Positions 5,223 to 54,831 of a DNA stretch of 64,000 nucleotides are shown piece after piece. A program made the translations under genes and the position numbers. Below the pieces are notes generated by a model. That model was not told where the DNA came from and ran no database searches. It saw only the letters and a program-made list of their open reading frames with translations. Numbering within the stretch: position 1 is the first letter of the stretch; each line of letters starts with the position of its first letter. Source of the stretch: an uncultured Ignavibacteria bacterium (lineage in GTDB: Bacteria; Zixibacteria; MSB-5A5; CAIYYT01); the NCBI GenBank assembly GCA_964537215.1, contig CAZIBI010000011.1, positions 4,517 through 68,516 on the forward strand, read 5' to 3'.

Positions 5223-5261
5223 CGGGCTAGTGAAGATCATGATAACTCGTTGGCTAGTAAA

Positions 5262-5306
5262 TGCCGGAGGGGGGAATCGAACCCCCACGGGTTTATGGCC
5301 CGCCGG
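5262..5306 (-). other. tRNA 3'-terminal fragment (T arm plus acceptor 3' strand); putative prophage att core or remnant
   Basis: The minus-strand sequence reads GGGGGUUCGAUUCCCCC-CUCCGGC-A, a canonical T stem-loop (GTPsiC-type UUCGAUU) followed by a 7-nt acceptor 3' strand and discriminator. No complementary 5' acceptor strand (G[CU][CU]GG[AG]G) and no D or anticodon arm occur within 150 nt upstream. Instead there is an unrelated perfect hairpin, GACAGC-AAA-GCUGUC. Confidence 0.5.
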
Positions 5307-5454
5307 ATTTTGAGTCGCTCGGACAGCTTTGCTGTCATAGAGTTACGAATCGTGTAACTGCCGCAGTGTCACTCCAAGAAATTCTTGTCAATAATAAGCT
5401 ATGATCGGTCAACCTCATACTACATTTTTAGGCTCGAATTAGGAAGGAGTAAAA

Positions 5455-6312
5455 ATGTGGGATGAATTGATCAGGTGGATTGGTGCTTTACTTGTCGGTG
5501 GAGCAGGGGTAGGAACATCTCTTGCCGAAACTCGGTATATGGGTGAACTCAACATTAAGGGTCGGCTCTTTCTGTTGAGCACGATTGTTGGCCTGCTAAT
5601 GATCACTGCAGGCGAGGTTTACAATCATTTTGTTGAAGACCGCCTTCAACGTCAGAATCAAATTGAAAATAAGTTCAGTACTCTTAAGGAATTTCCAATC
5701 AGAAATTTGGTGTTTGAATTTCATGTGGACAGCAAGAAGCTTAGCGACTTCCCGACTTTTAGCGCCAACTTCAATATAGAGGCTTTTACACCCGCTAACA
5801 TGAAGTTATTCGCACCCGTCGTACATATGCTCGGCGGGGTCTGCCATGATAGAGATTCGGGATGGGTCACGGGTGGCCCCCCTACTTATCCATTTGAAAT
5901 AGAACACAGCGATACTACACTGAGGTTCATAATTGAAAATCCCATGCTATATGCTGGTCCTAAGAATCCAAAACTTCGAATATCAAAAATATCTGACCTT
6001 GCGGGCCTTGATCTCCAGGTCTTCTTGGTGAGAACAGGGTGGACTGGAGATTGGCGAGATGCAACTTTTTCTCCAAGCGCCAATCCACTTACCGAATGTG
6101 AAGTGTTTGCTGAGGCCACCTTTGGAAAGCAACTTGTTTTGAAGTTGATTCCGGTGTATGAGCGTGATGATTCGAGCTGTGTCGCTGTGTACCTCCCCGC
6201 CACCGAAGCTCTAAAGCTAAGTACCGTGTCGGACTTTCGTCGCGCAGGGTGGAAATATAATCACTTCACGGTTGATGTCGCTGAAATGAAGAACTATTTG
6301 GAAGTACAATAA
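5455..6312 (+). CDS. Membrane protein (two N-terminal transmembrane helices plus a roughly 200-aa soluble domain); cargo or moron gene at the prophage end
   Basis: It is the only substantial plus-strand gene in the prophage. It is visibly more AT-rich than its surroundings and has a strong RBS (AGGAAGGAG, 7 nt before the ATG). The two hydrophobic segments are IRWIGALLVGGAGVGTSLA and LFLLSTIVGLLMITAG. Its own terminator follows. Confidence 0.6.
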   Translation: MWDELIRWIGALLVGGAGVGTSLAETRYMGELNIKGRLFLLSTIVGLLMITAGEVYNHFVEDRLQRQNQIENKFSTLKEFPIRNLVFEFHVDSKKLSDFPTFSANFNIEAFTPANMKLFAPVVHMLGGVCHDRDSGWVTGGPPTYPFEIEHSDTTLRFIIENPMLYAGPKNPKLRISKISDLAGLDLQVFLVRTGWTGDWRDATFSPSANPLTECEVFAEATFGKQLVLKLIPVYERDDSSCVAVYLPATEALKLSTVSDFRRAGWKYNHFTVDVAEMKNYLEVQ

Positions 6313-38635: not shown

Positions 38636-39178
38636 TTAGTTGCCGGGTGCACCCGCATCCTGTCCGGTGCCGGCTGCCGGCTTGTTATCGCCCGCGCCTG
38701 GCTCGGTGTTGGCTCCCGGAGCTGGCGGGGCTGCTGTCGATTTAGTCGTGACTGCATCCAGAGCGGTCCGTATTCGCTTGAGTCGACCTTCGCCGATCCC
38801 GTTGACGGCCAGCAACTGTTCGTCGCTCATCGCCGCGAGAGATTTGATCGAGTCGATTCCCGCTTGCTTGATGAAGCCCACTGTCACTTCGTCGATGTCG
38901 AGATTATCGAGTTCGTGATCGCCTTGCCCCACGCGCGACGGCATCTCCACATTGACAAGGCTCTCGAGATAGTCGGGCCTGAAGATTCCGAGAGGAATGT
39001 CCGGACGAACCGGGAGATCGAGGTCAGTGGCGAAGAACGCGTCGCTCACGAACAGCTTGCAGAGCGGGCTGTTCGCGGGCAACGTGATTGTGAAAGGCGA
39101 TTCAAGCTTAGCTCCAAAGCAGGGAGACTCGAAGCTCTGCGGCCTAAGCGTGAATCGTTTACATGCTACTTGTGACAT
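38636..39178 (-). CDS. Helix-hairpin-helix-containing protein (180 aa) adjacent to the major capsid gene
   Basis: The C-terminal sequence ...LLAVNGIGEGRLKRIRTALD is HhH-like. The protein has a Pro/Ala/Gly-rich tail. Confidence 0.3.
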   Translation of the reverse strand: MSQVACKRFTLRPQSFESPCFGAKLESPFTITLPANSPLCKLFVSDAFFATDLDLPVRPDIPLGIFRPDYLESLVNVEMPSRVGQGDHELDNLDIDEVTVGFIKQAGIDSIKSLAAMSDEQLLAVNGIGEGRLKRIRTALDAVTTKSTAAPPAPGANTEPGAGDNKPAAGTGQDAGAPGN

Positions 39179-39209: not shown

Positions 39210-40484
39210 TTATGTCAACGAAACTTCGGGCAGGCGAATACGAGTGATCTTCGACACCGCCTTGGGGATGACGAGGATGACATCGTAGTCAAAGAAATTC
39301 CGGAACCAGATGCGCTCGTAGTTCGATTCGAACTCCGAGTAGTTGCGCCAGTCGTCCGAAATACAGAGACCGAAGTTAAGCGGGTTGCAATGGATGATCG
39401 TGGTTTCGTCAGCGACGTAAACGCGATAGTTGGTCGCGGTTGTGTTGGCAGCACCGAGCCCGTAGAAGTCGGTGGTGTCAAATTCCAGATGGCTGGACAC
39501 ATCCGAGACGCGGCCAGTGCGCGTCTGACCAGTCGGGATATATACGACCTTGACGCGGCGGCCGGCATGCGCCGAATTGTAACCACCGAAAGCGGTGTCG
39601 CAACGCACGCGGGTAAAGCCCGACTGCGCGGAAGCCGCATCAGCAAGAGCGCTCGGACCGCCCTTGGTCGAAATCTGCGGAATACGCAGGAAAGGAATCG
39701 AGAAGGGAGCTGTGATGCCGCGCTGTGTGAGCGCCTCAGCGGTCAAACCGGCGTACGAGGAACTCGTGTTCACATAGCCGATTTCTTCCTGCCACTTGTC
39801 GATGATGGCCGGGTTGCAGATCCAGCGAGTGGCATCGTCGCCGGAGAAGTCTTCGTCCATCAGCTCGCGCAGCTTGGCGAAGAACTTCTTGTTGAGCGGA
39901 AGGCTTAATGCGTCATAGAGCTGAGTCCCGGTGTTGGTTAACTTGAGAATGCCGTCGTTGACCGAACGCGAGTACTCGATGTCATTTGCGGGCGAAGCTG
40001 CGAGCGCCTCATCGCCGTTCATGAGGTTGTCGGCCATGTCATTAGAGACAACCGTAGCCCAGCGGGTCTTGATCATCTCGGTGACGTCGGTGATGCCATT
40101 GGCCTTGAACTGCCGGATCATCTGGCGAGTGATGGCCAGATCGGAACGTACACCGGCTGTCTTGAACGGGCGCTCGGTGAATTCCGGAGAAGTGGTCTTC
40201 TCGTAGCCCTTGTTTTCCTTTGCCGGGAAGACGGCGCGCTGCGTCCAGTCCATGACCGGCGCGTCGCCAGCCGGGCCGGCGACCGGAATAACCTGAATCG
40301 CCGCAAGCACAGAGGACTTTTGCTTGATCATGTCGATCATTTCCAGGCGCTGTTCAGGCGACAGGCTGCCTGTCAGCAGCTCGCTGGTGACAACGCTCTT
40401 CGTGATTGCCCCTTCCGGATTAAACTCGACACCTACGTCGTTGGCAATCTTCGAGAGAGCATCAATCGGATTTACCTTGCTCAT
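39210..40484 (-). CDS. Major capsid protein (424 aa)
   Basis: Its size and its position directly after the protease-scaffold gene fit a major capsid protein. Confidence 0.6.
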   Translation of the reverse strand: MSKVNPIDALSKIANDVGVEFNPEGAITKSVVTSELLTGSLSPEQRLEMIDMIKQKSSVLAAIQVIPVAGPAGDAPVMDWTQRAVFPAKENKGYEKTTSPEFTERPFKTAGVRSDLAITRQMIRQFKANGITDVTEMIKTRWATVVSNDMADNLMNGDEALAASPANDIEYSRSVNDGILKLTNTGTQLYDALSLPLNKKFFAKLRELMDEDFSGDDATRWICNPAIIDKWQEEIGYVNTSSSYAGLTAEALTQRGITAPFSIPFLRIPQISTKGGPSALADAASAQSGFTRVRCDTAFGGYNSAHAGRRVKVVYIPTGQTRTGRVSDVSSHLEFDTTDFYGLGAANTTATNYRVYVADETTIIHCNPLNFGLCISDDWRNYSEFESNYERIWFRNFFDYDVILVIPKAVSKITRIRLPEVSLT

Positions 40485-40557: not shown

Positions 40558-41880
40558 TTAGGCGGGATTCGAGAGTTTCTCTTCCGCCAGAAGCGAAAGA
40601 CTCTTGAAGATGGCGTCCGTCGAAGACGTCTTTTTCGGCGGATCATCGGCCTTCTCGATGACAATGTTCGAGCCAAGTGATTTCTTGAGAACAGCCGAAA
40701 TGTTCTCAACCTTGGTATTGAGGTTGACCACCGCCTTGGCCATCGTCGCGGTGATCTCACCCTCCTCACCCTTGACGAGCTTGTCCAGCTTGCCGGTGAG
40801 ATCGGTGACCGACTGCTGCAGCGCGTTGAGATCGCCCGTAGCCTTCTTGACTTCGTCGAGCTTGTTGGTGATGGCCTTGTTGACGGCATCCGGTAGCGCC
40901 GCGGAGATACCATCCGCGATCATCTTGTTCAGTTGTTCCGGCGTCAATTGCATTTCGATTTCTCCTTCTTGAGGCGGCTTCGCGCCGCCGTCGTTATCCA
41001 GATTGAATTCAATTTTCTCGGGTTCTCTCTCCACACCCTTGCGCAGCTCAATGACTGACTTGGACATCTTCTCCAGGACGCCCATAATCTGAGCCATCTT
41101 GTTCCAGAACTGGTCGAGTGATTCCTTGATCGCGGCAAGCTTTTCGGCGTCGGATTTTCCGTCTTCGTACATGGCGGAGACTATTGCGGAGTAGATGGTG
41201 TCCATCATCTTGGGTAGATTGTCCCAGAACTCCTGCAGGCGCATCGCTTGGTCGAAGTCGATTGACTTGACTATCGCTTCGATGTTGTCAGCCGGAACGT
41301 AGCCCGCTTTGCGCAACAGGGAATCCAGCCCGCGCTCGACAAAGCTCTTTTCAACCGGACTGCGCTTCGCGTAGCCACCGATCGACACTCCGGTAATCTC
41401 GCCTTTGACGATCTTGTCCCAGGTGGCGTCGGTGCACTGAATGCAGATCCACCAGGCGCCCGGATAGACTTTCTCAAAGCCGTGAGCCTTGCCCAGAGCG
41501 CCGTCCTTGTCGATAGCCGACTGGACCGCATTGCCGACGTTGTCGAATATCTTGTGATCGATTCCGGTTCCGGTGCCTTTTTGGGTACCGACGGACAGGT
41601 TTGTCATGAAGGAATTGCACGCACGCTCGACCTGTTCTTCGTGAACGGCCTCACCGTCGCGGTGTGGCAGCTCCGGCACCAGCGCATAGAGCAGGACTTG
41701 CTTCTTGACAGTGTCAACTTTGGTGAACTCAAAGAAGCGTTCGACCTTTTCGTAGCCTTGAGGCGCGGTCGCAGCTGACTTCATGACTTGGATCGTTGCT
41801 TCCGGCACCATTGGCGTGCCGCAAAGCGAGACCTCGACAACCGAAATCTCTGACAGATATGCCTTGATATCTCCGGGCAT
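40558..41880 (-). CDS. Prohead protease fused to a coiled-coil scaffold domain
   Basis: The N-terminus looks like an HK97-type prohead protease (...ISVVEVSLCGTPMVPEATIQ...). The C-terminal 200 aa are coiled coil (KLDEVKKATGDLNALQQSVTDLTGKLDKLVKGEE). The start is placed at MPGDIKAY. Confidence 0.55.
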   Translation of the reverse strand: MPGDIKAYLSEISVVEVSLCGTPMVPEATIQVMKSAATAPQGYEKVERFFEFTKVDTVKKQVLLYALVPELPHRDGEAVHEEQVERACNSFMTNLSVGTQKGTGTGIDHKIFDNVGNAVQSAIDKDGALGKAHGFEKVYPGAWWICIQCTDATWDKIVKGEITGVSIGGYAKRSPVEKSFVERGLDSLLRKAGYVPADNIEAIVKSIDFDQAMRLQEFWDNLPKMMDTIYSAIVSAMYEDGKSDAEKLAAIKESLDQFWNKMAQIMGVLEKMSKSVIELRKGVEREPEKIEFNLDNDGGAKPPQEGEIEMQLTPEQLNKMIADGISAALPDAVNKAITNKLDEVKKATGDLNALQQSVTDLTGKLDKLVKGEEGEITATMAKAVVNLNTKVENISAVLKKSLGSNIVIEKADDPPKKTSSTDAIFKSLSLLAEEKLSNPA

Positions 41881-41917: not shown

Positions 41918-42436
41918 TTAGATCTGGGCGAATCGAGGATCGTAAGTTGCGAGCTCTTCGCTCTGCTCAATCTTGGTTATCTCACCGCGTTTGATTGCAG
42001 CCAGCGCCCTTGTGAGTGCCCGCAACCCGGCAGGAATGAATCGCGCGTGGTACGCGCGGCCGGCGCTCTCACCTGGCTTCAGTAGGACGGCCTCTTGTTC
42101 ACAAATCGGGCCGGTGTCAATTCCCTCGTCGCACCAAAACCAAGTGACTCCGGAAACACGTTCGCCGGATGCAATCGAGTGTCGAATTGCGTCAGGACCG
42201 CGGCGATACGGAAGGATTGACGGGTGAAAGATCAGCGTGCCGAGTATTGGCGCGGACCATTCAGAGCGCTTGAGAATCCTGTTCAGCCGCGGCGCAAGGG
42301 CGAAACATGCCAAGTGCGGATTTGCGCATAAATGGAATCCGGCATCCCGGCAAAGCGCCAAACACTCGAGTCCGAATTTCTCACCGCCACCATAGATAAA
42401 GACATTGCTATGGACGACCTCGGCGAGCGCGCTCAT
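41918..42436 (-). CDS. Formyltransferase-domain protein (172 aa), Fmt/PurN N-terminal-domain-like
   Basis: The motifs HPSILPYRRGPDAIRHSI and GVTWFWCDEGIDTGPI resemble the Fmt SLLP and DTG motifs. The catalytic Asn position reads LIFHPS, with no Asn. The gene overlaps the upstream gene by 4 nt (ATGA). Confidence 0.5.
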   Translation of the reverse strand: MSALAEVVHSNVFIYGGGEKFGLECLALCRDAGFHLCANPHLACFALAPRLNRILKRSEWSAPILGTLIFHPSILPYRRGPDAIRHSIASGERVSGVTWFWCDEGIDTGPICEQEAVLLKPGESAGRAYHARFIPAGLRALTRALAAIKRGEITKIEQSEELATYDPRFAQI

Positions 42437-43593
42437 TGCTTCACCTCGCCATAGTAGCGGAATCCCTGCACAGCGCGGAAGTGACCGCCGTATCCGGAAG
42501 AGGGGGCATCAACGCGTCCTAAGCGGGCCGCCGACTTTTGTATCGAGGCGGCGCTCTTTGCCTTCGATGATCCAAAGAGCTTCGCGGAAACTTGCCGCCA
42601 CCGTTTGTCGTGGCGCAGAGCCGAGCACAAGCCAGGATGGGAAGTATGGAAGATCGTTCGTAGCTTGCGCCCTGGAATCCTGCCCTTGCCCTCGAGCTGC
42701 AGCTGGCAGATGAAATTCAGGAACCGCATACCGACGCCGGCGCCTTGCCATTCCGGCATGACGACCAATCGGCAGGCCCTTGCTTCTATTCCGTCGCCGC
42801 AATTCTTGGTTGAGACCGCCAGGTGTACGACCGGCTCACCGTCTACCGAGCCAACGTAGCACTTGGCGCCGATCATCTTCGGAATTTTCAGATAGTGATG
42901 CGGCTCAAACAAGTCCCAGTAACGCCAGTCCGTCTGCCAAACCGAGAGCTCAAACTTTGGCCGTCGCCAAAGGCCCCTCCCAGAGTACTTTCCGGTCCCG
43001 GTGTCGAACACCCAGTCGGGTTCCAGCCAGTCGATGATATCGTAATGGCATGAGAGCAGCACGCACTTGCCGACGCCGCGCTTCCACGACTTGGCAAAGG
43101 CCAGCGCTCCGAAGCGGGCGATCTGACGATCAACGACCGACGTGAATTCATCGATAACGATCGAATCCGGCCGTTCGGCAATTACCCGAGCGAGATCCGC
43201 TCGAAACTTTTCTCCGTTCGACAGAACGCGATACGGCCGCAACCAAGTCGGTACCGATCCGAGGCCGACCGATGCAAGCGCCGCAGTGACATCGTTGAAG
43301 TCGCCGCTGGCCGCGATTGCGTCGATGATCGGCTTGTTGCCCGGCCAGTCGGTAGACTGGTAAAACGCTTGCTTGCCGAGAACCTTTTCACCCAGCGAGC
43401 TCTTGCCGCTTCCACTGGGACCGACAATCAGTCCGAGTTTCCAATCTGCGTCATCTATCGGCAGATCAACTACGAGATCGAAGTTTGCTCCGGACTCGGC
43501 GTTGAAGAGTGACTTTACTCGGGCGGCCCGGTAGCTCCGGAAATTGGCGCAAGACTTGTGGACCTCAATCTTCATGTGGTCACCACCTTGCAC
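42433..43593 (-). CDS. ABC-type ATPase domain fused to a C-terminal GNAT-like domain (386 aa)
   Basis: ABC hallmarks are present: Walker A GPSGSGKSSL, the signature LSNGEKFRADLARVI, Walker B / D-loop DSIVIDEFTSVVD and an H-loop LSCHY. The C-terminal sequence RLVVMPEWQGAGVGMRFLNFI resembles GNAT motif A. Confidence 0.5.
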   Translation of the reverse strand: MQGGDHMKIEVHKSCANFRSYRAARVKSLFNAESGANFDLVVDLPIDDADWKLGLIVGPSGSGKSSLGEKVLGKQAFYQSTDWPGNKPIIDAIAASGDFNDVTAALASVGLGSVPTWLRPYRVLSNGEKFRADLARVIAERPDSIVIDEFTSVVDRQIARFGALAFAKSWKRGVGKCVLLSCHYDIIDWLEPDWVFDTGTGKYSGRGLWRRPKFELSVWQTDWRYWDLFEPHHYLKIPKMIGAKCYVGSVDGEPVVHLAVSTKNCGDGIEARACRLVVMPEWQGAGVGMRFLNFICQLQLEGKGRIPGRKLRTIFHTSHPGLCSALRHDKRWRQVSAKLFGSSKAKSAASIQKSAARLGRVDAPSSGYGGHFRAVQGFRYYGEVKQ

Positions 43594-44132
43594 TGGTAAC
43601 CTTGCTTGGTCAGCTTCGCATAGACCGCGGACTGCTCTTTCTCATTTGCGCAGGTGACAATGACGCCGAACTGTTCCCGATAGTTGTTCTCGTCGGGGAT
43701 TGGCGCCGCAAGGTCTGACAGATCGGCGGAGCCGATTTGCTTGGCGAGAGCCTTCAGGTCCTCGTCGCCAAAGCCGAGGTCTAATGCCGTGATGTCGAGC
43801 GATTGAGTGATGCTCTCTATCTGCTGTAGCAGCTGGGCTTCATCCCAGCTCGACAGCTCGCCGGTTCGATTGTCGGCGATAGCGAACGCCTTCGCCAAGG
43901 TGCCCTTCAGTTCCGTGCGGACAACGTCAACCGTCTTCCAGCCGAGTTCGCGGGCAGCGGCAACGGTACCGTTGCCGGCGATTACGAAATTCTTTGCATC
44001 GACGACGACCGGTTTCTGTTGCCCGTATCTCGTCAGCGAATCCTTGATTGCAGCGAGATTCTTCTCGTTATGCAATCTCGGGTTGGCCGGGTGCAGCTTT
44101 AGCCGCTCCAGCCGGACACGCTCCAGCTTCAT
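43572..44132 (-). CDS. ParB/Srx-like N-terminal-domain protein (186 aa)
   Basis: The sequence VRLERLKLHPANPRLHNEKNLAAIKDSLTRYGQQKPVVVDAKNFVIAGNGTVAAARELGWKTV matches the ParB N-terminal fold. The GxRR arginine pair is replaced by GNGT. Confidence 0.5.
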   Translation of the reverse strand: MKLERVRLERLKLHPANPRLHNEKNLAAIKDSLTRYGQQKPVVVDAKNFVIAGNGTVAAARELGWKTVDVVRTELKGTLAKAFAIADNRTGELSSWDEAQLLQQIESITQSLDITALDLGFGDEDLKALAKQIGSADLSDLAAPIPDENNYREQFGVIVTCANEKEQSAVYAKLTKQGYQCKVVTT

Positions 44133-44180
44133 GGTTCACCTTCCGATAAGATTAGATATACCACACCCCAAAAGGGATAT

Positions 44181-44240
44181 GGCACAGTGGAAAGTGACAC
44201 GGTGAGCTGCTAACTTTGCGTGTCATGGGGGCACTGTGCC
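44181..44240. promoter_or_regulatory. Nested inverted repeats (outer 9-bp ggcacagtg/cactgtgcc, inner gtgacacg/cgtgtca) in the 140-bp gap between the head-morphogenesis gene and the three-gene insert
   Basis: Direct sequence inspection. This is the only sizeable intergenic gap in the head operon. Confidence 0.45.
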
Positions 44241-44274
44241 CTCCAGAAAAGTGCTTAGAATCGTTCGGCGCTTA

Positions 44275-45231
44275 CTACGCCGCTCGCCTGAAATGTCTTG
44301 AGATATCGCCCCGCATCTTGCGCATGAATGAGACAACTGTACACCGGCAACTGAAATGGAACGGCGGCAGTATCATGCCCTTATCCATTATCTGGCCAAT
44401 GTCCAGTCCTGAGATATCATCGAATGACAGCCACGGCGAAACCGCCTTGACGTCTTCCGGATTCTCGCTTGCGATCATGCGCTCGACCTGGCCGTAAGCC
44501 TTGCCGACCGGAATGATCTTGCCGTTCATCTCGCCGCAGATCGGGCAAGTGCGCTCGTCATCCATCGCAATGATTTCGAGCTCGGCGATGTCGACTTCTT
44601 TGTAGCCGCGAATCAATCCGAAATTGCGACTGCGATTCATGGCGCTGCCGGCGAGGCCCGACCAGTAGTTCTGCGGTTTGGCCGGTACGCCTGGATAGTC
44701 TTCGAAGAAATTGCTGAGCAGCTTGCCGACTTCATCGCGGCCGAGTCCCTGCTCGAGTCCGCTGGCCACCGTTTGGGAAATGGCGCCGGATATATTCTTG
44801 TCGAAGTAGTTGCCGATCCAATAGGTGTGATGGTTGGTCAACCAATTGACCGACACCTCATCGCGGAGACTGAAACTCACATCGAGCAACTGCTGACTGA
44901 GCCCAATCGCCTTGCCGTTCAGATAAGACTTGCCGAACAAGGTCAGGAGGCCTTCGCGCATATCCTTGGCCATCTTCGGGCCTGCCTCCGACCGCAGGAC
45001 TTCGATTATCACCTGGAGGTCATCCTGCGTCACCCGAGTACTGACCTCGTGGATGTACGCCATTGCGGTCTTCAACCCGCGACGCGTTGCTGCTATCCAG
45101 CCGGTATATACCAGCTCGAGCATGTCAGCCTCGTACGGAATTGTCTCGCGCTTGTTGATCGCGTCAACGGAGCGATCAATAATTTGGATTGCGAGATTGC
45201 GCTCGTCAGCGGTGAGGCAGTCAAGGCACAT
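44275..45231 (-). CDS. Head morphogenesis protein, Mu gpF / SPP1 gp7 family (318 aa)
   Basis: A C-terminal ...PPFHFSCRCTVVSF motif is present. The gene lies directly after the portal gene. Confidence 0.6.
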   Translation of the reverse strand: MCLDCLTADERNLAIQIIDRSVDAINKRETIPYEADMLELVYTGWIAATRRGLKTAMAYIHEVSTRVTQDDLQVIIEVLRSEAGPKMAKDMREGLLTLFGKSYLNGKAIGLSQQLLDVSFSLRDEVSVNWLTNHHTYWIGNYFDKNISGAISQTVASGLEQGLGRDEVGKLLSNFFEDYPGVPAKPQNYWSGLAGSAMNRSRNFGLIRGYKEVDIAELEIIAMDDERTCPICGEMNGKIIPVGKAYGQVERMIASENPEDVKAVSPWLSFDDISGLDIGQIMDKGMILPPFHFSCRCTVVSFMRKMRGDISRHFRRAA

Positions 45232-45233
45232 AA

Positions 45234-46859
45234 CTATTGCACCGCGTGCTTCTTTTCGATCGCTTTTCTTAGACCGCTTAGTCCATCGATAAGCGAACGA
45301 CCGAACGGGTCGCCACCCGATCCACCGGAACCGAATGGGTCAAACGCCGGAGCGAATTGCTGCTTGTACTCGCCGTAGAGCATGTTGCGAATCTTCTCAT
45401 CCAGCTTCGGCGGCTCCTTGCCCATCAGTGAGCAGAGGAAGTCAACAGCGTGGCCAACCGGTATCAGATCCGGAGTCTTGCTCATTGCGTCGAGGATTTC
45501 GACATTGTCGACGATGGGTAACGGCAGAGATTCGAAACGCCAGTTCCGGATTCCCATGCTCAGGCAGATCTGGTTAAACATCTCGTCATCGGCGTGGCGC
45601 AGTGGCGCAAACGCCTGCTGCTCGGAAATGACCTTGGCCTCTTTGACAGCTGCGTGACTGTAATCTGTCGACGCGCCAACCAGCGCCGGAGCGATACGAA
45701 ATTTCTTAAGGACAGCGTCGGCGTTGTTCTTGATGTAATTCTGGAAAAGCGCGTCCTGCTGCATGTATTGTGCAAGCGGCACGAACTCGATCTTGACTGG
45801 GCTGGCCTTTTCCCCACCGGAGGCATCTTCGTACTTAAAGGGCTCGGCCTGTAGAATCATCGACTTGTGGAAGTTCTGAACTCCGGCGATGTTCGTTTCG
45901 ATGAACCCCCGGATACTCTCGGAAGCATCTTCGCCGGCTTCTCCGGTAGGTAGGAAGCCGCCGGAAACGAGAATCGCAAACTGCGGTATGCCCTTGTTAT
46001 CGAAGTAGAGATAGTTGACGTCCTTGGCGAGCTTGGCGCCAACGATGTTGATTATCTCACTGACCCAGGGCGCTTCACCGTAAGGCGAATTGTTCGAAGG
46101 GTAGCAATCGAAGATAAGCTCGGTCGCTTCGAGATTGAGCGGCCAGCGGCTGTCGCCCTTGCCGAACTCTCCCGTCAGCTTGTTGAGGCTGCGCGGATCC
46201 CCGAATGACTTAAACCAAACTTTCTTGTTTCCGATTTGCTGGCAGAACTTCCGGAAGCGAGTGACGCTGGTCTTCTCTTCCCAGCTGCCGTCATCCATCC
46301 GGACCGCATAGTTAACCTCGATGTCCGTTGTGTCCGGCTTGCTCATGCGGACGGTCTTGGCCGGCACGCGATAGAGCTCTACAGGATCGCCGATAAAATT
46401 GCGGACAATCTCGGTGCAGCGATAGCCGGTATAGCTTTTGTCCATCCGCAGCTCCGCGCGAAACTTGCGCAAAGACTGATGCGGATTGGGCTGCCGGAAG
46501 AGAAGCTCGACGCGCTTGAGATCGGCCAGGTCGGCGGCGCCTGGGTTTTGATCGGGGTTCGCCCTGGGCGCCTGAAACTTGATCGCGTAACCGGTGTAGT
46601 CGACGTTGACCGTCAGGGCTTCAACGCATTGCGAGATCGTATCGGAGTTGAATGAGAATGTGCAGAGCGTAGCCGGATCAAACATCGGCCGCAAGAGTTC
46701 ATTCTTGCCATAGCTCTGTTCGAAGCCGTCGATGATGTTGGACTGCGGCCCCGTCATCGCCTTTTCGACGATGGACGACATCATGCGCGGCTGTATGAAC
46801 TTCAGCCCGGCTTGTTTGTCCTTGGTGACAATCCTCGACGTCGCTACAACTTCGCCCAT
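45234..46859 (-). CDS. Portal protein (541 aa)
   Basis: Its size and its position between TerL and the Mu F-like gene fit a portal protein. Confidence 0.6.
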   Translation of the reverse strand: MGEVVATSRIVTKDKQAGLKFIQPRMMSSIVEKAMTGPQSNIIDGFEQSYGKNELLRPMFDPATLCTFSFNSDTISQCVEALTVNVDYTGYAIKFQAPRANPDQNPGAADLADLKRVELLFRQPNPHQSLRKFRAELRMDKSYTGYRCTEIVRNFIGDPVELYRVPAKTVRMSKPDTTDIEVNYAVRMDDGSWEEKTSVTRFRKFCQQIGNKKVWFKSFGDPRSLNKLTGEFGKGDSRWPLNLEATELIFDCYPSNNSPYGEAPWVSEIINIVGAKLAKDVNYLYFDNKGIPQFAILVSGGFLPTGEAGEDASESIRGFIETNIAGVQNFHKSMILQAEPFKYEDASGGEKASPVKIEFVPLAQYMQQDALFQNYIKNNADAVLKKFRIAPALVGASTDYSHAAVKEAKVISEQQAFAPLRHADDEMFNQICLSMGIRNWRFESLPLPIVDNVEILDAMSKTPDLIPVGHAVDFLCSLMGKEPPKLDEKIRNMLYGEYKQQFAPAFDPFGSGGSGGDPFGRSLIDGLSGLRKAIEKKHAVQ

Positions 46860-46872
46860 GATTTCCTATTTC

Positions 46873-48516
46873 TTAGATTAGAGTGATGCCGGCAGGCTGC
46901 TTTCGGATCTTTCTCTTCGCCGTCGGCTGCGTTGCCACATCCACGGGCACCGTTGGTTCTGTCCTCACCTTTGCCTGAGACACATGTCCGACTCGCTCCA
47001 GGTATCTCAAGAACCACTGAACACCCCGCTCGGTGATCCAAGCTGCCGAGAGCTGGTCGTCGTGATCACAGGCCGTCGGATCGTGAAGCTCTTCGATCAG
47101 ATTGTCAGTGATTTCCTTATCTTCGGGAGTCTTGTACGGGAAATGGATTTGGCGGTTCTCACAGAGCACCGAGAGCGATGGATAGCCTGCGAATGGATCG
47201 TACTTATTGCCGCCGGTGTAGTGCTTTTTGATCGGGACGCCGGTCTCTTCTCTGATATGCCAGCTGTAGATTTCACCGAAGGCATTTTCTTCGAAGAACA
47301 TCCGGTTCGGGCGATGAAGTCGGCACTGGTTGACGATCGTGCTCTTGACTGTCTTCGGCGACATTCCGCGATCGCGGAAGAGATCCAGCAGATACCGATG
47401 TTCGTTTTCCGCGATGCCCCAGGTCATATTGACAAAGAAATCGGTGTCGTTTTTCTCGGCCCGCTTCTTGTCAGTAACTAAGGCCGGGTCGCACCCGGAA
47501 ATGATGCCAAGGAATTTCTTCCGGTCGTACTCGCGGTAGCTAATTGTATCATCGCAGCACGCCTTGAGGTCGTCTCGCGAGATAAGTGCGCTAACATCGT
47601 CGCTCGCCTCCTGCTGATATTTCAGGTTGAAAGCGACAGTGCCAATTTCGCGGCGCAGAGCGAGCAGTCGTTTGACCGGATATCGCTCTTCGGTGAGTGC
47701 CTTGCCCGGAAACTTTAGGTCAATTTCGACGCGCCACTTACTGCGGTCGCCGAATTCATTGACCTCATGCCGCGGCAGCTCGACGATGCGGTAATGCTCT
47801 GGCCCCGGATCCTCGACCAGCGCCTTGCTGATAATCATGTGGTAGTCGGCAAGGCCCGCAAGGTACGCGTAGATGTCCTTGGGGTGCTGCTTATTGGCGA
47901 GCACCAACAAACGGCCGCCCGGTACCAAACGCGTACGAATCGCGTTCTGGAACATGTGGACGTGGAACTTCCGCGTCTTCTCGCTTCTGACGTTGAGATC
48001 GTTCTGGATGTCATCCAGAAGGATCAAGTCATAGTGCTTCCCGTAGAAGCGCTTCGAGTCCATGCCGTAGGCCTCGAAGGTGCGCTCTTTCGCATTGAGG
48101 TCGCGGCGAACTTGGAAGCGACGATCCGACCAATACTTCGCAGTCCTAAACGGTCCGAAGTCCTCGATGATTCTATCGTTCTCGAGGTCTTGGCGGAGCA
48201 CCGAGCCGGAGGCCTCCGAAAGGTCGCCGGTCGATGAAATATAGCAAATGCGGATGTTGCGATTGAATGTTATCGACCGCAGCGGAACAAGCCGCGCGAT
48301 AACTTCGGTCTTGCCGGAATCCGGCGGGCCGACGATGCCACCCTTGGTGATCTCGCGCAGTTCTTCGAACCACGCCTTTTGACACGCCCAGAGATTTAAG
48401 TCAAGATAGTACGCCGCATAGAATTTGATCGACTTCGCGGCAAGCTTGCGCCTCGCTGTCGGGGTGCTTGCACCCAAATCTCTAAGTGCGGCATTGATCT
48501 CACTTGGGCTTATCAC
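46873..48516 (-). CDS. Terminase large subunit (547 aa)
   Basis: An N-terminal P-loop (GIVGPPDSGKTEV) and a C-terminal nuclease-like region (DTDFFVNMTWGIAE) are present. The gene lies between the TerS-like and portal genes. Confidence 0.75.
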   Translation of the reverse strand: MISPSEINAALRDLGASTPTARRKLAAKSIKFYAAYYLDLNLWACQKAWFEELREITKGGIVGPPDSGKTEVIARLVPLRSITFNRNIRICYISSTGDLSEASGSVLRQDLENDRIIEDFGPFRTAKYWSDRRFQVRRDLNAKERTFEAYGMDSKRFYGKHYDLILLDDIQNDLNVRSEKTRKFHVHMFQNAIRTRLVPGGRLLVLANKQHPKDIYAYLAGLADYHMIISKALVEDPGPEHYRIVELPRHEVNEFGDRSKWRVEIDLKFPGKALTEERYPVKRLLALRREIGTVAFNLKYQQEASDDVSALISRDDLKACCDDTISYREYDRKKFLGIISGCDPALVTDKKRAEKNDTDFFVNMTWGIAENEHRYLLDLFRDRGMSPKTVKSTIVNQCRLHRPNRMFFEENAFGEIYSWHIREETGVPIKKHYTGGNKYDPFAGYPSLSVLCENRQIHFPYKTPEDKEITDNLIEELHDPTACDHDDQLSAAWITERGVQWFLRYLERVGHVSQAKVRTEPTVPVDVATQPTAKRKIRKQPAGITLI

Positions 48517-49105
48517 CGCGACGCTGCTTGATTATGTCATCGGCGATCGTGTCGCCGAGTTCCTCGAGGTTGACCTGCGCAACCTGTTCGAGCTTGTCGA
48601 GTATGGCCGCAACGCGATCCGTCTTCTGTTCCGTGGGCTCCGGTGTGTCGAGCGGAATCTCCGGAGTCACCATGTCGAGCAACTCCATTTTTGTTTTTAC
48701 CAGCTCGCGGTAATCTTTGAGGTCGCCCTTAATGCCCCTTACTTTGCCAGTACCCTGGCAGGCCTCGCAATTCCCGCCGGCAACTTTGCCGGTAGCGCTG
48801 CAGTTCGGACATGGCCGCGGATACTTCGCTTCGAGGACGATGTTGTTCACGACGCCGGCGATGAAGGTATTGGTCTCCATCAGCTGGTTGGCCATCGAAT
48901 ACGATGCCCGGTTATCAGCAATCCTTTGTGCCTTTTGCCGGCGCTCTTCTATGCGCTCATCCCAACGGTCCCGCTTCTTGATCCGCGAGATCGTAACCTC
49001 TGAAATCCCGAAGGTCCGACTAAGTTGAGCAAAAGGCGTGTCCTGCTCGTAGAGCTTGAACATCGCAACGGCGATGTCTTTCGTTACTTTGCGTTGGACT
49101 GGCAT
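48500..49105 (-). CDS. Putative terminase small subunit / HTH DNA-binding protein with an internal zinc ribbon (201 aa)
   Basis: The N-terminus has an HTH (FAQLSRTFGISEVTISRIKK). A CPNC...CEAC ribbon follows. It is the first gene after the late intergenic region and overlaps terL. Confidence 0.5.
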   Translation of the reverse strand: MPVQRKVTKDIAVAMFKLYEQDTPFAQLSRTFGISEVTISRIKKRDRWDERIEERRQKAQRIADNRASYSMANQLMETNTFIAGVVNNIVLEAKYPRPCPNCSATGKVAGGNCEACQGTGKVRGIKGDLKDYRELVKTKMELLDMVTPEIPLDTPEPTEQKTDRVAAILDKLEQVAQVNLEELGDTIADDIIKQRRGDKPK

Positions 49106-49400
49106 TAGGAGTTGAGACTTTCGGGTTCAATGCAGCGCGGCGTTATTGGCGCCGCGCCGCTACTTCAGGGAGGTACTGGCTTACATATAAAGGAAGGACT
49201 GTACTTTGTGACTGGGGATGTTGTTGGCGTTGAGTTGATTAACTCAAGTTGGGTGTTTTTGCACCCGTTGGTGGACAAGGAGTTACTGGTGTATTGCGAG
49301 CGGAATTTCAAAAAACTATTTTTTCGGCGAGTACGACTAAACTTGGCTTAAGTTATTCGCCGATATGTTTTTGCGGAAAGTGAAAGTTTTTTTGTCTACC
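49106..49400 (-). promoter_or_regulatory. 295-bp AT-richer intergenic region upstream of the packaging and late operon, with a terminator-like GC hairpin and a 7-bp palindrome
   Basis: The hairpin gcgcggcg-ttattgg-cgccgcgc lies at about 49131-49153. The palindrome TTGAGTT-gatt-AACTCAA lies at about 49232-49250. There are A/T runs around 49310-49400. Confidence 0.45.
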
Positions 49401-50416: not shown

Positions 50417-52258
50417 CTAACTTAACTGATCCGCTATCAGCTGCGATAGCCTTATTTCGGACGATCCTTCTATCAGGCCGAGCGAGCGCATGCGCGAAAG
50501 ATACTCGCCGAAAGTCCCACCGCTCGCTACCACACCCACCAAATCGGCAAGCTCTGCCCTGCTGATTCCTTTGGGGTGGTCCAGGATAATATCGAGCATC
50601 TCAGCTTGCCGCGCGTTCAAATGGTTGGCCTTATACCAGTCGATCAACTCCCTTCCGATCGGCAGCGGCTCGACATCGCGGACGGTGGCCTCGCCTGTGG
50701 CGGTTATTCGGATGCTATCCCGTTGCCCCTCAATCAGTCTGGCTACTCGTAGGCGCGAGAGATACTCCCCAAACGTACCGCCGGTACTCTTGAGCCCGAC
50801 CAGCGTCCCGATTATCCGAGCACTGGTCGACTCAAAACCCATCTGTTGACGCTGCGAGAGAGCTACCAGAATGCGCTTCTGGGAAGCGTTGATTTTGAAG
50901 TCGCCGTCAACTTGTTCAGCTTTCTTTACATCTTTCGGAACATGTAAAGTTTCGGGGCGATTTCTGAACGAGTTTGGCTGTTCCTTGGCGACTTTTACAG
51001 ATTCCGTTATTGTGTTATCTTCCTCACGGACTGTAAGGTGCCGGGTGCCTGGTGTGAAGGTTCGGTGAACTCGCATTTCCGTTGAATGACCTTTCGGGTC
51101 GACCTCTTCAACTCTCTTTTTGTTCTCGATTATAACTCCGGCCATCGCGTGGACGTCCTCAATGAAGCTTTCGGCGGGAGAGAGGCGTTTAACCAACCTT
51201 CCGACAAGCCTTTCCGCGTCAATTAGGCTCTTGCGAAGACCCATGATTTCGGTTCCATGATCGCACGGCTTCACCTGGCTCTTTTCCGCCAGCGTCAACT
51301 TGCGCTTAAGGTCGGTTATCTCCCTGCGGAGATCCTCCGTCGTGCGCGCCTGCTCTTCGGCTTCCTGCGGGAGATCTGCGAGTTTAGCGAGGATGTCCTT
51401 AACCTTTGCGTTCGGCGCCGGCGGCGTCTCGAGGAAACGAGCCCCGACCTTGGGGTGGTGCGTCTCAACCGGACCGACCTTGAGCAATAGGACACCGGGG
51501 GCTTCCTGTTTGTCGGTTCGCCAAGCCGGACCGTAAGCGTAGAAGTCCCCGGGTCGGAGGATTCGCAAGGCTGTTCTGTCGGCCTTGCCGATGAGTCCAA
51601 GTTCGTCGGCGGCTCTTGCCTGGTCGATGTCGAGAGACGTTCGGCCAATAAGCTTGTTACCCAGTTCCGCACAGACGTCCTTGTGGAACTTCGATAGTCT
51701 TTGTGTGGCTGCTACGAGACAAAATCCACGTTTCCTTCCCCTCGTGGCCAGATCAATTACGGATGGTGCGGATTCAGCTTGGCCTTTTTCCGGACAGAAG
51801 TGATGAGCTTCGTCGATCACTACAAGTATCGGACGCCACAAATCTTTCTTGACCATCATGAGAGACTCGAGGAAAAGCCGCACAAATCGGATTCTGTCAT
51901 GGGCTTTCAGCTCGTAGAGATCGCAGATCGCGGAGACCTGCAGCTCCATCAGCTTTTGCGCGAGTAGCCCGGCCGTCTTGGGCGAAGCCTGCACGTCGCC
52001 GTTCTTGCTGGCGATGATGTAATCAAATTTAGAGCGGAGCGTCGAGAACTCGCCTTCGAGGTCGATGACAATCTGCTGCACCTGTCCGTGCGATTGTTCG
52101 AGCAGCCGGCGAATCGCCCAAGACTTTCCGGCGCCGGATTGCGCCTGAATCAACGCCCGTGATTCGATCAAAGTCGGAAGGTCGAGATCGAGATCGCGGC
52201 CTTCGTTGGTCTTGCCGATGTTAAGTTTCATCGCCGGTTCCTCCGAAAGAACTTCCAA
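50417..52258 (-). CDS. HerA/FtsK-superfamily P-loop ATPase (DUF87-like) with two C-terminal winged-helix repeats (613 aa)
   Basis: Walker A (AQSGAGKSWAIRRLLEQ) and Walker B (PILVVIDEAHHFCPEKG) are present, as is ATRGRKRGFCLVAATQRL. The C-terminus carries a tandem ...GGTFGEYLSR(L/M)R...LIEG... duplication. Confidence 0.55.
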   Translation of the reverse strand: MEVLSEEPAMKLNIGKTNEGRDLDLDLPTLIESRALIQAQSGAGKSWAIRRLLEQSHGQVQQIVIDLEGEFSTLRSKFDYIIASKNGDVQASPKTAGLLAQKLMELQVSAICDLYELKAHDRIRFVRLFLESLMMVKKDLWRPILVVIDEAHHFCPEKGQAESAPSVIDLATRGRKRGFCLVAATQRLSKFHKDVCAELGNKLIGRTSLDIDQARAADELGLIGKADRTALRILRPGDFYAYGPAWRTDKQEAPGVLLLKVGPVETHHPKVGARFLETPPAPNAKVKDILAKLADLPQEAEEQARTTEDLRREITDLKRKLTLAEKSQVKPCDHGTEIMGLRKSLIDAERLVGRLVKRLSPAESFIEDVHAMAGVIIENKKRVEEVDPKGHSTEMRVHRTFTPGTRHLTVREEDNTITESVKVAKEQPNSFRNRPETLHVPKDVKKAEQVDGDFKINASQKRILVALSQRQQMGFESTSARIIGTLVGLKSTGGTFGEYLSRLRVARLIEGQRDSIRITATGEATVRDVEPLPIGRELIDWYKANHLNARQAEMLDIILDHPKGISRAELADLVGVVASGGTFGEYLSRMRSLGLIEGSSEIRLSQLIADQLS

Positions 52259-52729: not shown

Positions 52730-53215
52730 TCATCCCTTCCCCTTTCCCACGCAGGCGGAGCAAAGATCGGGTTCGACCCAGTGGCAGAAGCCTTCATCCG
52801 TAGAGCATGCGGAAAATTCTGTGCATGCACAAACGCGGCACTTCTTATTGGCATCAGTCTGTGCAGCCTTCCGTTCCCGCGTCATGTTGAAAAAGTCCCG
52901 CGCGGCAAAGACGCGTCCGATGCCCATGATCTCACGCGCCCTGTTGGCTTCTGCCACGGTCCAGCGCTGTCGCGGCTTCCGCTGAATCTTGTTCATCTCG
53001 AAGATGTCGCAGATTGTCAGCTCCAACTCTTCAACCCGCTTGTTCATGGCAACAATTTCGTCGAGTTCATTTACTGCCGCGAGCAATCCCTGATAAGCAA
53101 GCCTCGTATGCTCGACCTGCTCTTTACTGTCTAATGAGAGGTCCTCGAATTGCGTCCGGCATCCCTTCGCCGCCTCCTCGATGCGGCGAATAATGTCGAT
53201 CTTCGCTCGGTTCAC
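52730..53215 (-). CDS. Hypothetical protein with a C-terminal Cys cluster (161 aa)
   Basis: The C-terminus reads CRVCACTEFSACSTDEGFCHWVEPDLCSAC. The gene overlaps the ParB-like gene by 4 nt. Confidence 0.4.
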   Translation of the reverse strand: MNRAKIDIIRRIEEAAKGCRTQFEDLSLDSKEQVEHTRLAYQGLLAAVNELDEIVAMNKRVEELELTICDIFEMNKIQRKPRQRWTVAEANRAREIMGIGRVFAARDFFNMTRERKAAQTDANKKCRVCACTEFSACSTDEGFCHWVEPDLCSACVGKGKG

Positions 53216-54831
53216 TTCTTCCCTGCCTTCTTCTCCGGTGCGGCGCCGACCTTCGGCTTCGCGTCGGGGATCGCTTTCACCGCGTCCGCTTCGAGGTCGG
53301 ACCAGTTGAGGCCGAGCAGGTGAATTGCAATCTGTTGCGTTGCCTGCCAGTCATCAACGTAGATGCTCTCCGATACGACTCTCCAGATTTCCTTAAGCGC
53401 CGCACCTTCGCTCATATTCTTCCACTTCGCGAGTCCGTCAAATTTACCGTGATCGTTGCAGATAAGCGCGGATGCAAAGAGCCTCATGACGTCCATCGGG
53501 GTGAGCAAAACAAGATGCGCCGGTGGGTTAGAGCGCGAATCGAAGGAATTCATTATCTTCTCGCGAATCCACTGCTCGCGCCGTGCCGCAATTTCTTCGG
53601 CTTTCTGTTTCTCAACTTGTTCCGGCGTCATCTTCTTGACATCAGCCTTGGTCGGTTTCTTCGGCTCATCCGCCTTCTTGATCTTGATGTAGCTGATCGA
53701 TCCAAGCCCTCTCTCGTTGATCGTCATGGCGGGGACTGCGCCCTTGTCACTCTTCCTGACGACCTCGTAACCTAAGTCACTACTCCACGGTTTGGGCTTA
53801 ATGAGGGTGTTGCCGCGCGACAAACCTCCGACGATCCGATTATCGCCCCTGCCCCAGCCGGAGTTCTTATCCAAAAGCACAAGGTTCGGATGTTTGGCTT
53901 GCGCCTCTGCAAGCTTCTGCTTGCCGAATTTTTCCAGCTTCTTGTTCCAGCAGGCGATGTCCAAACACTTGTCCTCCGGCGATGCTTTCTTGCCATCGAC
54001 TTCGCCGTCGAAAAGCAGCGACTGGCAGGACGACCGTTTCGGGCAGGCGCTACAAGCACCGGCAGCCGGGAACAAAATCGCGTCATCGAGCTTCCACGGC
54101 GCGGACTTGAGCGTTCGATCGAACGCCGATAGCTCGCGCTTAACATCGTTGACGGTCGGGACGTTGCTGCTCTTCAAGTAAGATTGCAGTAGCTTGCCCT
54201 GTACGCTCGGCTCATAACTGGCGATCATTTCGAACGCGGCCACTGATAGAGCTTTGCCTTCTCGCAAGTTGGCGATGTACTTCATCCATTCCGGCGTGAG
54301 CTTATTGAGCTGCTCGCGCCGCGCTACCGCCTGCGGTGTCATCCCCAGATCGGCGGCAATATCTTTCGTCTCGCGGCCGTCGTCGCGCAGATTCTTGATC
54401 GCGGCCGCTTCTTCGAATGCGGTGAGCTGCAAGCGGTGAAGATTGGCAGTGAGCTGGATCGTCTGCATTTTGTCACCAGGCATGTCTTCGGCGATCTCTA
54501 TCACGCGCGCGGTCTTGGTTTTGTTCTTCTGCAGAGCGGCGAACCTCCGATGGCCGTCAACCAGCAAATACTTCTCGTTGCCTTTGATGTCGCCGCCGTC
54601 CGGAATGTGCTGCACGATTAACGGAATTTGCAGTCCGATTGCGGCGATGGATTTCGCCAACGTGTCGATATCACGCAGGCGGTCGTTCCCTTGACTCGCC
54701 CGAATGTGACTCAATTCAATTTCTTTTACTTCTTCTCTTGCGGTGGTCATTACTTCCTCACTTGGTTCGTTGAAAACTCTCCGGCTCCCAGAAGACCAGC
54801 CAGCGGTCGACTGTCGCAGTCGGTTCCTCAA
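53212..54831 (-). CDS. ParB-like nuclease / partition-family protein (539 aa)
   Basis: An N-terminal ParB domain (...YLLVDGHRRFAALQ...) and a central HTH-like region are present, followed by a Lys-rich C-terminus. Confidence 0.6.
   Translation of the reverse strand: MRNRLRQSTAGWSSGSRRVFNEPSEEVMTTAREEVKEIELSHIRASQGNDRLRDIDTLAKSIAAIGLQIPLIVQHIPDGGDIKGNEKYLLVDGHRRFAALQKNKTKTARVIEIAEDMPGDKMQTIQLTANLHRLQLTAFEEAAAIKNLRDDGRETKDIAADLGMTPQAVARREQLNKLTPEWMKYIANLREGKALSVAAFEMIASYEPSVQGKLLQSYLKSSNVPTVNDVKRELSAFDRTLKSAPWKLDDAILFPAAGACSACPKRSSCQSLLFDGEVDGKKASPEDKCLDIACWNKKLEKFGKQKLAEAQAKHPNLVLLDKNSGWGRGDNRIVGGLSRGNTLIKPKPWSSDLGYEVVRKSDKGAVPAMTINERGLGSISYIKIKKADEPKKPTKADVKKMTPEQVEKQKAEEIAARREQWIREKIMNSFDSRSNPPAHLVLLTPMDVMRLFASALICNDHGKFDGLAKWKNMSEGAALKEIWRVVSESIYVDDWQATQQIAIHLLGLNWSDLEADAVKAIPDAKPKVGAAPEKKAGKK

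Follow-up and report, generated by a model that had tools for sequence, protein, structure and literature searches.

The window analysed here is a stretch of 64,000 nucleotides (nt) from an uncultured Ignavibacteria bacterium (contig CAZIBI010000011.1 of assembly GCA_964537215.1), and it contains a prophage with a three-gene cassette inside its head-morphogenesis operon. All three genes lie on the minus strand. They encode a ParB-like protein of 186 amino acids (gene 1, 43572-44132), a fusion of an ABC ATPase to a GNAT domain of 380 amino acids (gene 2, 42433-43575, here ABC::GNAT), and a formyltransferase-fold protein of 172 amino acids (gene 3, 41918-42436, here Fmt-like). The open reading frames (ORFs) had been listed in an earlier note on this DNA and all were confirmed. 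The genes are co-directional and translationally coupled, and they sit between a gene for a MuF-like minor head protein upstream (44275-45231, minus; Pfam Phage_Mu_F, 31.8 bits) and a gene for a 440 amino acid prohead protease/scaffold downstream (40558-41880, minus; Peptidase_S78_2 of the XkdF type, Pfam E 4e-16; phrog_3017). A structured leader of 142 nt (44133-44274, minus) fills the gap upstream of the ParB-like gene.

The start of the ABC::GNAT gene is almost certainly the ATG at 43575 (MKIEVH...) and not the GTG at 43593 chosen by the ORF lister, because all homologues begin with MKIEVH and a 380 amino acid database protein (P0001) is 100% identical. Given this start, both junctions in the cassette are 4-nt ATGA overlaps; the ATGA described before stands, and the overlap previously given as 22 nt becomes a second one. 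The spacing to the protease gene is 37 nt, one less than had been counted, and the protease/scaffold start (ATG 41880) agrees with gene calls on identical contigs.

The ABC::GNAT protein consists of an ABC head (residues ~1-200, including the Q-loop region), a GNAT domain (residues ~215-335), and a conserved C-terminal extension (FHTSHPG ... GYGGHFRAVQGFRY). Walker A (GPSGSGKS), the signature (LSNGEK), the Walker B D-E pair (IVIDEF), and the H-loop (SCHYD) are all intact, and the same polypeptide contains GNAT motif A (PEWQGAGVG), which binds coenzyme A (CoA). The assignment to ABC ATPases and GNATs, first made from such motifs, was borne out by structural comparison, which confirmed both folds. 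Two further motifs can be read in the cassette, LIFHPSILPYRRG and IDTG. The protein matches phrog_11143 ("unknown function") from end to end (E 2e-145). Across this family Walker A, the signature, Walker B (D-E), and the H-loop are invariant and GNAT motif A is invariant or nearly so, and we therefore expect an ATPase cycle and binding of a CoA thioester. Pfam, NCBIfam, and PADLOC hold no curated family for the whole protein or for the cassette, and returned generic ABC and GNAT matches and a weak mad3 match; a PDB sequence search gave only weak matches to ABC nucleotide-binding domains.

We compared the gene neighborhoods of 84 viral loci (4 GenBank phage records and 80 viral metagenome contigs, from at least 583 matching contigs) and of 80 bacterial species genomes (from at least 532), the latter from phyla that include Ignavibacteria, Gemmatimonadota, Acidobacteriota, Planctomycetota, Verrucomicrobiota, Chloroflexi, Bacteroidota, and Proteobacteria. 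A domain of ~40 residues is encoded directly upstream of ABC::GNAT in 80 of 84 viral loci and in all 80 genome loci. The Fmt-like gene lies directly downstream in 72 of 84 viral loci, with the misses mostly at contig ends, and in 67 of 79 genome loci (~85%). The window has both neighbors. The trio occurs in the same order, and translationally coupled, across hundreds of phages and prophages, and the small partner domain carries a fused ParB N-domain in about half of the cases. No further conserved neighbors (nucleases, readers, or biosynthetic genes) were found in the two sets beyond Com, ParB, the small domain, the Fmt-like gene, and common structural genes of phages. Flanking genes are unremarkable prophage genes, either baseplate and tail genes upstream or terminase and portal genes downstream, and the cassette is found beside terminase/portal genes or at the start of late operons. 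An ABC transporter was rejected as the identity of gene 2: no membrane permease partner is among these conserved neighbors, and the nucleotide-binding domain is fused to GNAT.

Among GenBank phages, ABC::GNAT is encoded by Burkholderia phage phiE255 and Pseudomonas phage Komp_PAO1_1, by ten Gordonia and five Porphyromonas phages, and by further phages. Of the 22 phages that encode a close ABC::GNAT, 21 also have the Fmt-like gene; of the 48 with a distant one only, none has it. Host-contaminated records aside, the gene is otherwise nearly absent from GenBank phages. The sole record with a close, full-length ABC::GNAT and no Fmt-like gene is MT835521.1 (L094, 3010-4380), where a 70 amino acid ORF follows and then the small terminase gene. 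In Gordonia phage Sisko (L003) and its relatives, gene 3 (1814-2464) is annotated as a "tRNA-methyltransferase" and is matched as the Fmt-like member of the cassette (tblastn E ~1e-5 against that of the window), so that label looks wrong. The phiE255 paper treated gp29, the ABC::GNAT of that phage, as an ABC transporter, and the close relative BcepMu is without the cassette (PMC2920897).

ABC::GNAT is highly conserved. More than 7,900 homologues are present in a large protein database, mostly 60-75% identical, and identity across bacterial phyla is 60-70%. In two phage comparisons in which the portal proteins share just 44% and 30% identity, ABC::GNAT shares 87% and 73%. Taken together, the portal, capsid, protease, and terminase proteins in these comparisons range from 26% to 66% identity, with ABC::GNAT at 87% where the capsid protein is at 26%. 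Such slow divergence fits universal substrates (DNA, ATP, CoA, folate) and would not be expected for a phage- or host-specific protein.

Gene 3 matches Pfam Formyl_trans_N at 53 bits (cut-off 26.1). The catalytic His71 and Asp107 are present and are invariant in 35 family members, as are P72, S73, L75, P76, R79, G80, A83, G109, and Q158, so that the whole HPSxLPxxRG loop is invariant. The catalytic Asn found two residues before the His in enzymes of the PurN, Fmt, and ArnA type is replaced by Ile in the window and by Gly in most members, and is never Asn. The family assignment of the earlier note, with Asn lost and Asp kept, was correct. The loss does not point to impairment, because the active N-terminal domain of ALDH1L1/FDH likewise lacks the Asn and has Ile at the corresponding site (IIYHPSLLP). 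A profile of the 35 members searched against PDB matched FDH over its full length (159 bits, E 1e-45), Met-tRNA formyltransferase at up to 101 bits, and HypX at 56 bits. Gene 3 is therefore assigned to the FDH/ALDH1L1 N-terminal type and is no degenerate Fmt or PurN, and the absent Asn is no sign of a dead enzyme. Methionyl-tRNA formyltransferase was rejected as its identity: the protein has 172 residues and lacks the C-terminal tRNA-binding domain of Fmt, the alignment stops near Fmt residue 205, and its TIGR00460 score of 48 bits falls short of the cut-off of 201. Among the Fmt-like proteins, the N-terminal half, which binds the acceptor, is poorly conserved, and its shortened, variable form would fit an acceptor presented by a partner protein. 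The ALDH1L1 N-terminal domain moves formyl from 10-formyl-tetrahydrofolate to a 4'-phosphopantetheine arm (PMC8748788).

The ParB-like protein has two parts, a ParB/Srx-type N-terminal domain with a helical linker (residues 1 to ~145; 43695-44132, minus) and the C-terminal ~40-residue partner domain (YREQFGVIVTCANEKEQSAVYAKLTKQGYQCKVVTT; 43572-43694, minus; phrog_28816 E 2e-12 over residues 150-185). The ParB/Srx fold named in the earlier note is upheld by phrog_620 (E 7e-37) and TIGR00180 (E 1e-7), with Pfam ParB_N just below threshold (E 8e-5; 23 bits, cut-off 26.3). The replacement of the GxRR motif by GNGT (IAGNGT), read directly in the sequence, also stands; the domain thus lacks the GxxR phosphate- and nucleoside triphosphate (NTP)-binding motif. 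The ParB domains that it matches best are those of phage fusions with DNA methyltransferases (phrog_498, E 2e-31; N terminus of PADLOC MTase_II, E 3e-15). ParB domains linked to the cassette vary at this motif (GNGT, GHGR, GHLR, GNKT), and because the same small domain is joined to ParB domains of several subtypes, some with the GxxR arginine and some without, the ParB module is an accessory that can be exchanged. A partition ParB was rejected, as only the N-domain is matched in 186 residues, the C terminus is the partner domain, and there is no adjacent ParA. Judged by its sequence pattern, the partner domain itself resembles a beta-alpha-beta unit. In other loci it forms a separate protein of 42-63 amino acids, for example phiE255 gp28; natural fusion of this domain to ABC::GNAT was not found among the longer family members, which carry other N-terminal extensions.

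Two architectural classes can be distinguished by the state of the partner domain. In class A it is free, and a zinc-ribbon gene of the Com family lies directly upstream in 23 of 32 such viral loci; overall, a Com homologue directly precedes the cassette in 24 of 84 viral and 30 of 80 genome loci. Its identity is given by Pfam Zn_ribbon_Com (E 9e-21, above threshold) and by BLASTP to Mu Com (E 4e-9). The order in phiE255 and Komp_PAO1_1 is tail fibre, tail-fibre assembly, Com-like, small protein, ABC::GNAT, and Fmt-like, so that the cassette of these Mu-like phages sits in the mom position, with ParB absent and the packaging genes far away. The Com-like genes (IRCGxCxRKLA...IKCPRCG) lie at ~21359-21478 in phiE255 (CP000622.1), where the gene is unannotated, and at 22093-22239 in Komp_PAO1_1 (PQ287647.1), where it was not recognized as Com. 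We also sampled other Com homologues in Pseudomonas phage B3, Burkholderia phages KS5 and AP3, and Aeromonas phage phiARM81ld, and in all four the overlapping downstream gene encodes a DNA methyltransferase. The cassette is a third kind of gene to occupy the slot behind Com. Com precedes a DNA-modifying enzyme in every case examined, and the Com context of the cassette points to DNA.

Class B, to which the window belongs, has the partner domain fused to the ParB N-domain and usually adjoins terminase/portal genes; Com is absent from all 44 class B loci examined. A study in PNAS (PMC13229309, 2026) shows by experiment that phage thymine dioxygenases acting after replication need ParB-like proteins to be active on double-stranded DNA, and that the NTP-binding residues of these ParB-like proteins can be dispensed with. 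By analogy we regard this as a direct precedent for class B, one that would extend to the GNGT variant of the window.

A distant clade is found in Lactococcus P335, Streptococcus, and Oenococcus phages, Arthrobacter phage EastWest, and the T4-like Aeromonas phage PX29. It keeps ParB::small-domain (the small domain is recognizable in P335 Orf23 and EastWest gp74) and ABC::GNAT, sometimes split in two ORFs, and no shared third gene was found in this Fmt-less clade. From this distribution, the core of the cassette consists of the small domain and ABC::GNAT, and the Fmt-like enzyme is an extra of one large clade that includes the window. In P335 (L085, 3962-5016) the ABC and GNAT parts are adjacent separate ORFs (Orf24 and Orf25), and BLAST matches to ABC::GNAT in Streptococcus and Oenococcus phages fall in two or three pieces; the split in these Firmicutes phages may be one of two true polypeptides or may mark a recoding or frameshift site. 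In PX29 (L086) a 415 amino acid protein encoded two genes downstream of ABC::GNAT (4742-5989) has a C-terminal part that matches a DNA methyltransferase family (phrog_21201, E 4e-42), which adds one more neighbor of the DNA-modification kind.

The view of the trio as an inserted cassette gained support from its different sites in related head modules. Phage L090 has a head module of the same type (ABC::GNAT 73% identical, portal 30% identical) with the trio placed before the terminase genes. Its slot between the MuF and protease genes (14572-15189) holds an unrelated gene for 205 amino acids without a family match, at the place where the lineage of the window has the trio. The cassette thus travels as a unit, and in head modules of this type the slot between the MuF and protease genes seems to be a place for cargo.

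Ahead of the ParB-like gene, the leader has a strong structure (z-score -4.3; none of 200 shuffles folds equally well). The remaining gaps of the head operon show none by the same test (+1.8, +1.05, -1.2, and +0.3), which agrees with the earlier description of the leader as the only structured gap there. The fold has three hairpins, and the Shine-Dalgarno sequence GGAAGGUG is able to pair with CACUUUCC upstream, which can sequester the ribosome-binding site. A nested inverted repeat had been proposed at 44181-44240; a perfect 9-nt repeat does exist (44181-44189 and 44232-44240), but the minimum-energy fold puts each arm in a separate local hairpin. The structure is kept in a relative (L088), with two pairing-preserving changes in the third hairpin. 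No consensus terminator or promoter site was called in the leader, which may be an element that controls translation or processing. Ahead of the TerS-like gene, another strongly structured region (49106-49255, minus; z-score -3.05) contains a 12-bp GC-rich hairpin, GCGGCGCGGCGCC...GGCGCCGCGCUGC, that may mark a late-operon boundary.

We consider it reasonably probable that the cassette is a late, post-replicative DNA base-acylation system, which marks phage DNA just before or during packaging and so evades restriction and other DNA-targeting defenses. The ParB domain would bring the complex to double-stranded DNA or activate it there, as ParB-like partners do for thymine dioxygenases. ATP-driven dimerization of the ABC heads would then clamp or distort the DNA and present a base to the GNAT pocket, and the GNAT domain would move an acyl group from a CoA thioester to the exocyclic amine of that base. 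The part of the Fmt-like enzyme is more speculative. It may pass formyl from 10-formyl-tetrahydrofolate to the pantetheine thiol of CoA, so that labile formyl-CoA is made on the spot and the ATP-gated ABC::GNAT leaves an N-formyl mark; alternatively, it may formylate a group already installed by GNAT. Formyl-CoA is plausible as an intermediate because CoA carries the same phosphopantetheine arm that the ALDH1L1 domain formylates, and GNATs use CoA thioesters. Cassettes without the Fmt-like gene would use an ordinary acyl-CoA, probably acetyl-CoA. A DNA mark of N-formyl, or of another one-carbon-derived acyl group, on an exocyclic amine by such a two-enzyme relay is a possible but doubtful refinement of base acylation.

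Several observations weigh against this proposal. The evidence for DNA as the target is all contextual, and no modified base is reported for any cassette-bearing phage, nor was an experimental study of the family found in limited full-text literature. The ABC head resembles transporter-type and soluble modules (ABCE1, PhnK/L, SufC-like), unlike classical DNA-binding ABC ATPases. The window has no Com, and weak Com matches in it fall on a Cys motif of the MuF-like gene; its ParB domain also lacks the NTP-binding arginine. The Fmt-like protein of the window is a short form missing ~50 residues of the N-terminal subdomain, as are those of close relatives and of the Porphyromonas phages. The Fmt-like gene is absent from the whole distant clade and from MT835521, so it is dispensable in some members and formyl cannot serve as a universal mark. 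The formyl-CoA relay we infer from two things only, the FDH homology of gene 3 and the CoA-binding nature of GNATs.

A protein target, with N-acetylation or N-formylation of virion proteins (portal, capsid, or packaged proteins) or of host proteins late in infection, would suit the location of the window cassette within a head-morphogenesis operon, and phage GNATs that acetylate host proteins are known, such as Rac of phiKMV-like phages (cited in a passage of PMC7824862). Elsewhere, however, the cassette follows tail genes or precedes terminase genes, away from the head genes, and Com and ParB fusions otherwise partner DNA-modifying enzymes. The conservation of ABC::GNAT beside fast-diverging capsid proteins and across phyla is hard to square with a specific protein substrate, and we regard this explanation as unlikely. 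It is also quite unlikely that the cassette serves RNA modification or a takeover of translation, by TmcA-like acylation of tRNA or rRNA and action of the Fmt-like protein on aminoacyl-tRNA. An ATPase joined to a GNAT domain is reminiscent of TmcA/NAT10, in which an NTPase works together with a GNAT to acetylate a base of a nucleic acid, and this general logic is shared; gene 3 matches Met-tRNA formyltransferases (E 1e-11 to 1e-28), ribosome-binding ABC-F proteins and ABCE1 are among the weak matches, and high conservation also suits a universal RNA substrate. The ATPase of TmcA/NAT10 is of the helicase type and not ABC, and the genomic context differs. TmcA, with its helicase-type ATPase, GNAT, and tRNA-binding domain, is absent from the 60 best structural matches, and was rejected as the identity of gene 2; the resemblance drawn in the earlier note has no specific link behind it. 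Moreover, the Fmt-like protein has no tRNA-binding domain and is nearer to FDH (159 against 101 bits), and the ParB N-domain and Com contexts indicate DNA.

Acylation of a small molecule (defense signaling nucleotides, polyamines, or antibiotics) in an anti-defense or metabolic role, with the ABC head as a regulatory switch only, has a low probability in our judgment. The small upstream protein is labeled "acr candidate" in Porphyromonas phages, a label based on size alone, and this explanation leaves the ParB fusion, the control by Com, the position near packaging genes, and the need for an ABC ATPase unaccounted for. We give an equally low probability to DNA handling without modification, in which ParB and the ABC ATPase would serve packaging by recognizing, condensing, or delivering DNA, while the folds of GNAT and formyltransferase would sense ligands and not catalyze. 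ParB and ABC (SMC-like) proteins organize cellular DNA, and the cassette often adjoins terminase/portal genes; Mu-like phages, however, have it far from the packaging genes and without ParB, and the invariance or near invariance of GNAT motif A and of the formyltransferase His and Asp argues for catalysis. Finally, the genes could be three unrelated accessories, namely a ParB of the plain kind, a fragment of an ABC transporter, and an fmt or purN fragment captured from the host, as GenBank labels would have it ("ABC transporter", "ABC iron siderophore transporter", "phosphoribosylglycinamide formyltransferase", "tRNA-methyltransferase"). The earlier note had set co-occurrence beforehand as the test that could refute its cassette, and the strict order and co-occurrence over hundreds of loci instead refute the unrelated-genes explanation; the ABC head has no membrane partner and is fused to GNAT, and the Fmt-like gene in GenBank phages is essentially confined to this ABC::GNAT clade. 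We give it almost no credence.

Base acylation of DNA by an ABC-ATPase plus GNAT protein is not a new prediction. Although the earlier note took the combination to be undescribed, Iyer, Zhang, Burroughs & Aravind (NAR 2013) predicted it as an acyl modifier of a DNA base, which is restated in a passage of Iyer et al., Viruses 2021 (PMC7824862). The architecture and family (phrog_11143) are the same, and the same functional prediction was reached independently here. Their predicted system is placed in phages including some jumbo phages (in a passage of PMC7824862), and it is also in the T4-like Aeromonas phage PX29; the placement in the window, between the MuF-like and protease genes, is unusual by comparison. 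This kind of cassette is known only as a computational prediction, and the window holds a further copy in an unusual position.

The closest functional parallel considered is com-mom of Mu, where Mom makes N6-methylcarbamoyl-adenine and Com is a translational activator. Both systems have a GNAT catalytic fold and late expression, the cassettes of Mu-like phages follow tail-fibre genes directly behind a true Com homologue, and protection from restriction is the likely purpose of both. The earlier idea, a module that modifies nucleic acids or counters restriction and has Mom as its analogue, gains independent support from Com, from the mom position, and from the methyltransferase-type ParB, from which the function would follow by inference. 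No homology of the cassette to Mom was found (BLASTP E 1.7; profile-sequence hhalign probability 0.2%). Mom is a single, iron-using protein of 231 amino acids with no ATPase, partner protein, or folate enzyme, and the copy in the window differs from com-mom by its ParB fusion and structured leader and by the absence of Com. On balance, we take the cassette to be Mom-like in its working and unrelated to Mom. Mom is tightly regulated and highly toxic (PMC7261163).

The 5mYOX/ParB pairs (PMC13229309) and phrog_498 are similar in that a ParB N-domain protein adjoins, or is fused to, an enzyme for post-replicative DNA modification. There the partner is a dioxygenase or methyltransferase and here it is ABC::GNAT; the ParB domain of the cassette is joined through a dedicated ~40 amino acid domain, and is absent from about half of the cassettes. 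The N-terminal "hydrolase" domain of ALDH1L1 is the closest solved relative of the gene 3 family, with the His of HPSLLPxxRG, the Asp, and no Asn, and HypX/HoxX is a more distant one. The phage protein differs from ALDH1L1 in being a stand-alone protein of 160-250 amino acids with no carrier or dehydrogenase domain.

The late operon of the prophage further includes genes for a TerS-like protein (48500-49105), the large terminase (46873-48516), the portal (45234-46859), and the major capsid protein (39210-40484), all on the minus strand. The earlier note had described the setting as Mu-like. The head module is indeed of the MuF type, but the presence of a DnaB-type helicase gene shows that the prophage does not belong to the transposable Mu-like phages. 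The phage is uncultured. Near-identical phage DNA was not found among GenBank phages, and the closest relatives are prophages of Ignavibacteria-type metagenome-assembled genomes. The prophage also encodes a second ParB-like protein of 539 amino acids in the early/middle region (53212-54831, minus; phrog_4715, E 4e-19) and, upstream of the real terminase genes, a 613 amino acid protein (50417-52258, minus) that in part resembles a large terminase (phrog_2666, E 3e-18, residues 34-224). Directly after the major capsid gene is a gene for 180 amino acids (38636-39178, minus) with a weak HHH_5 helix-hairpin-helix DNA-binding signature and a low-complexity C-terminal tail, which is unusual in a head module.

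The analysis defines a minimal gene set of partner domain, ABC::GNAT, and Fmt-like gene, and it corrects the widespread misannotations "ABC transporter", "PurN", and "tRNA methyltransferase". Com homologues can serve as a marker of DNA-modification genes. The suggestion that an ALDH1L1-like domain makes formyl-CoA and that GNAT uses it is a biochemical proposal that can be tested. Genomes of at least 532 bacterial species, drawn from many phyla, contain the cassette, and so do cultured Burkholderia, Pseudomonas, Gordonia, and Porphyromonas phages; if base acylation is the function of the cassette, a very common phage and prophage cassette would encode a DNA modification. Such a mark would bear on restriction, CRISPR, BREX, and further defenses that sense DNA, as well as the sequencing and cloning of phage DNA and the choice of phages for therapy. 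If the formyl relay were also true, the mark would be one not yet observed in any organism and the first folate-dependent acyl modification of DNA, and its distribution over hundreds of species in many phyla would place it among the commonest unrecognized modifications of phage DNA.

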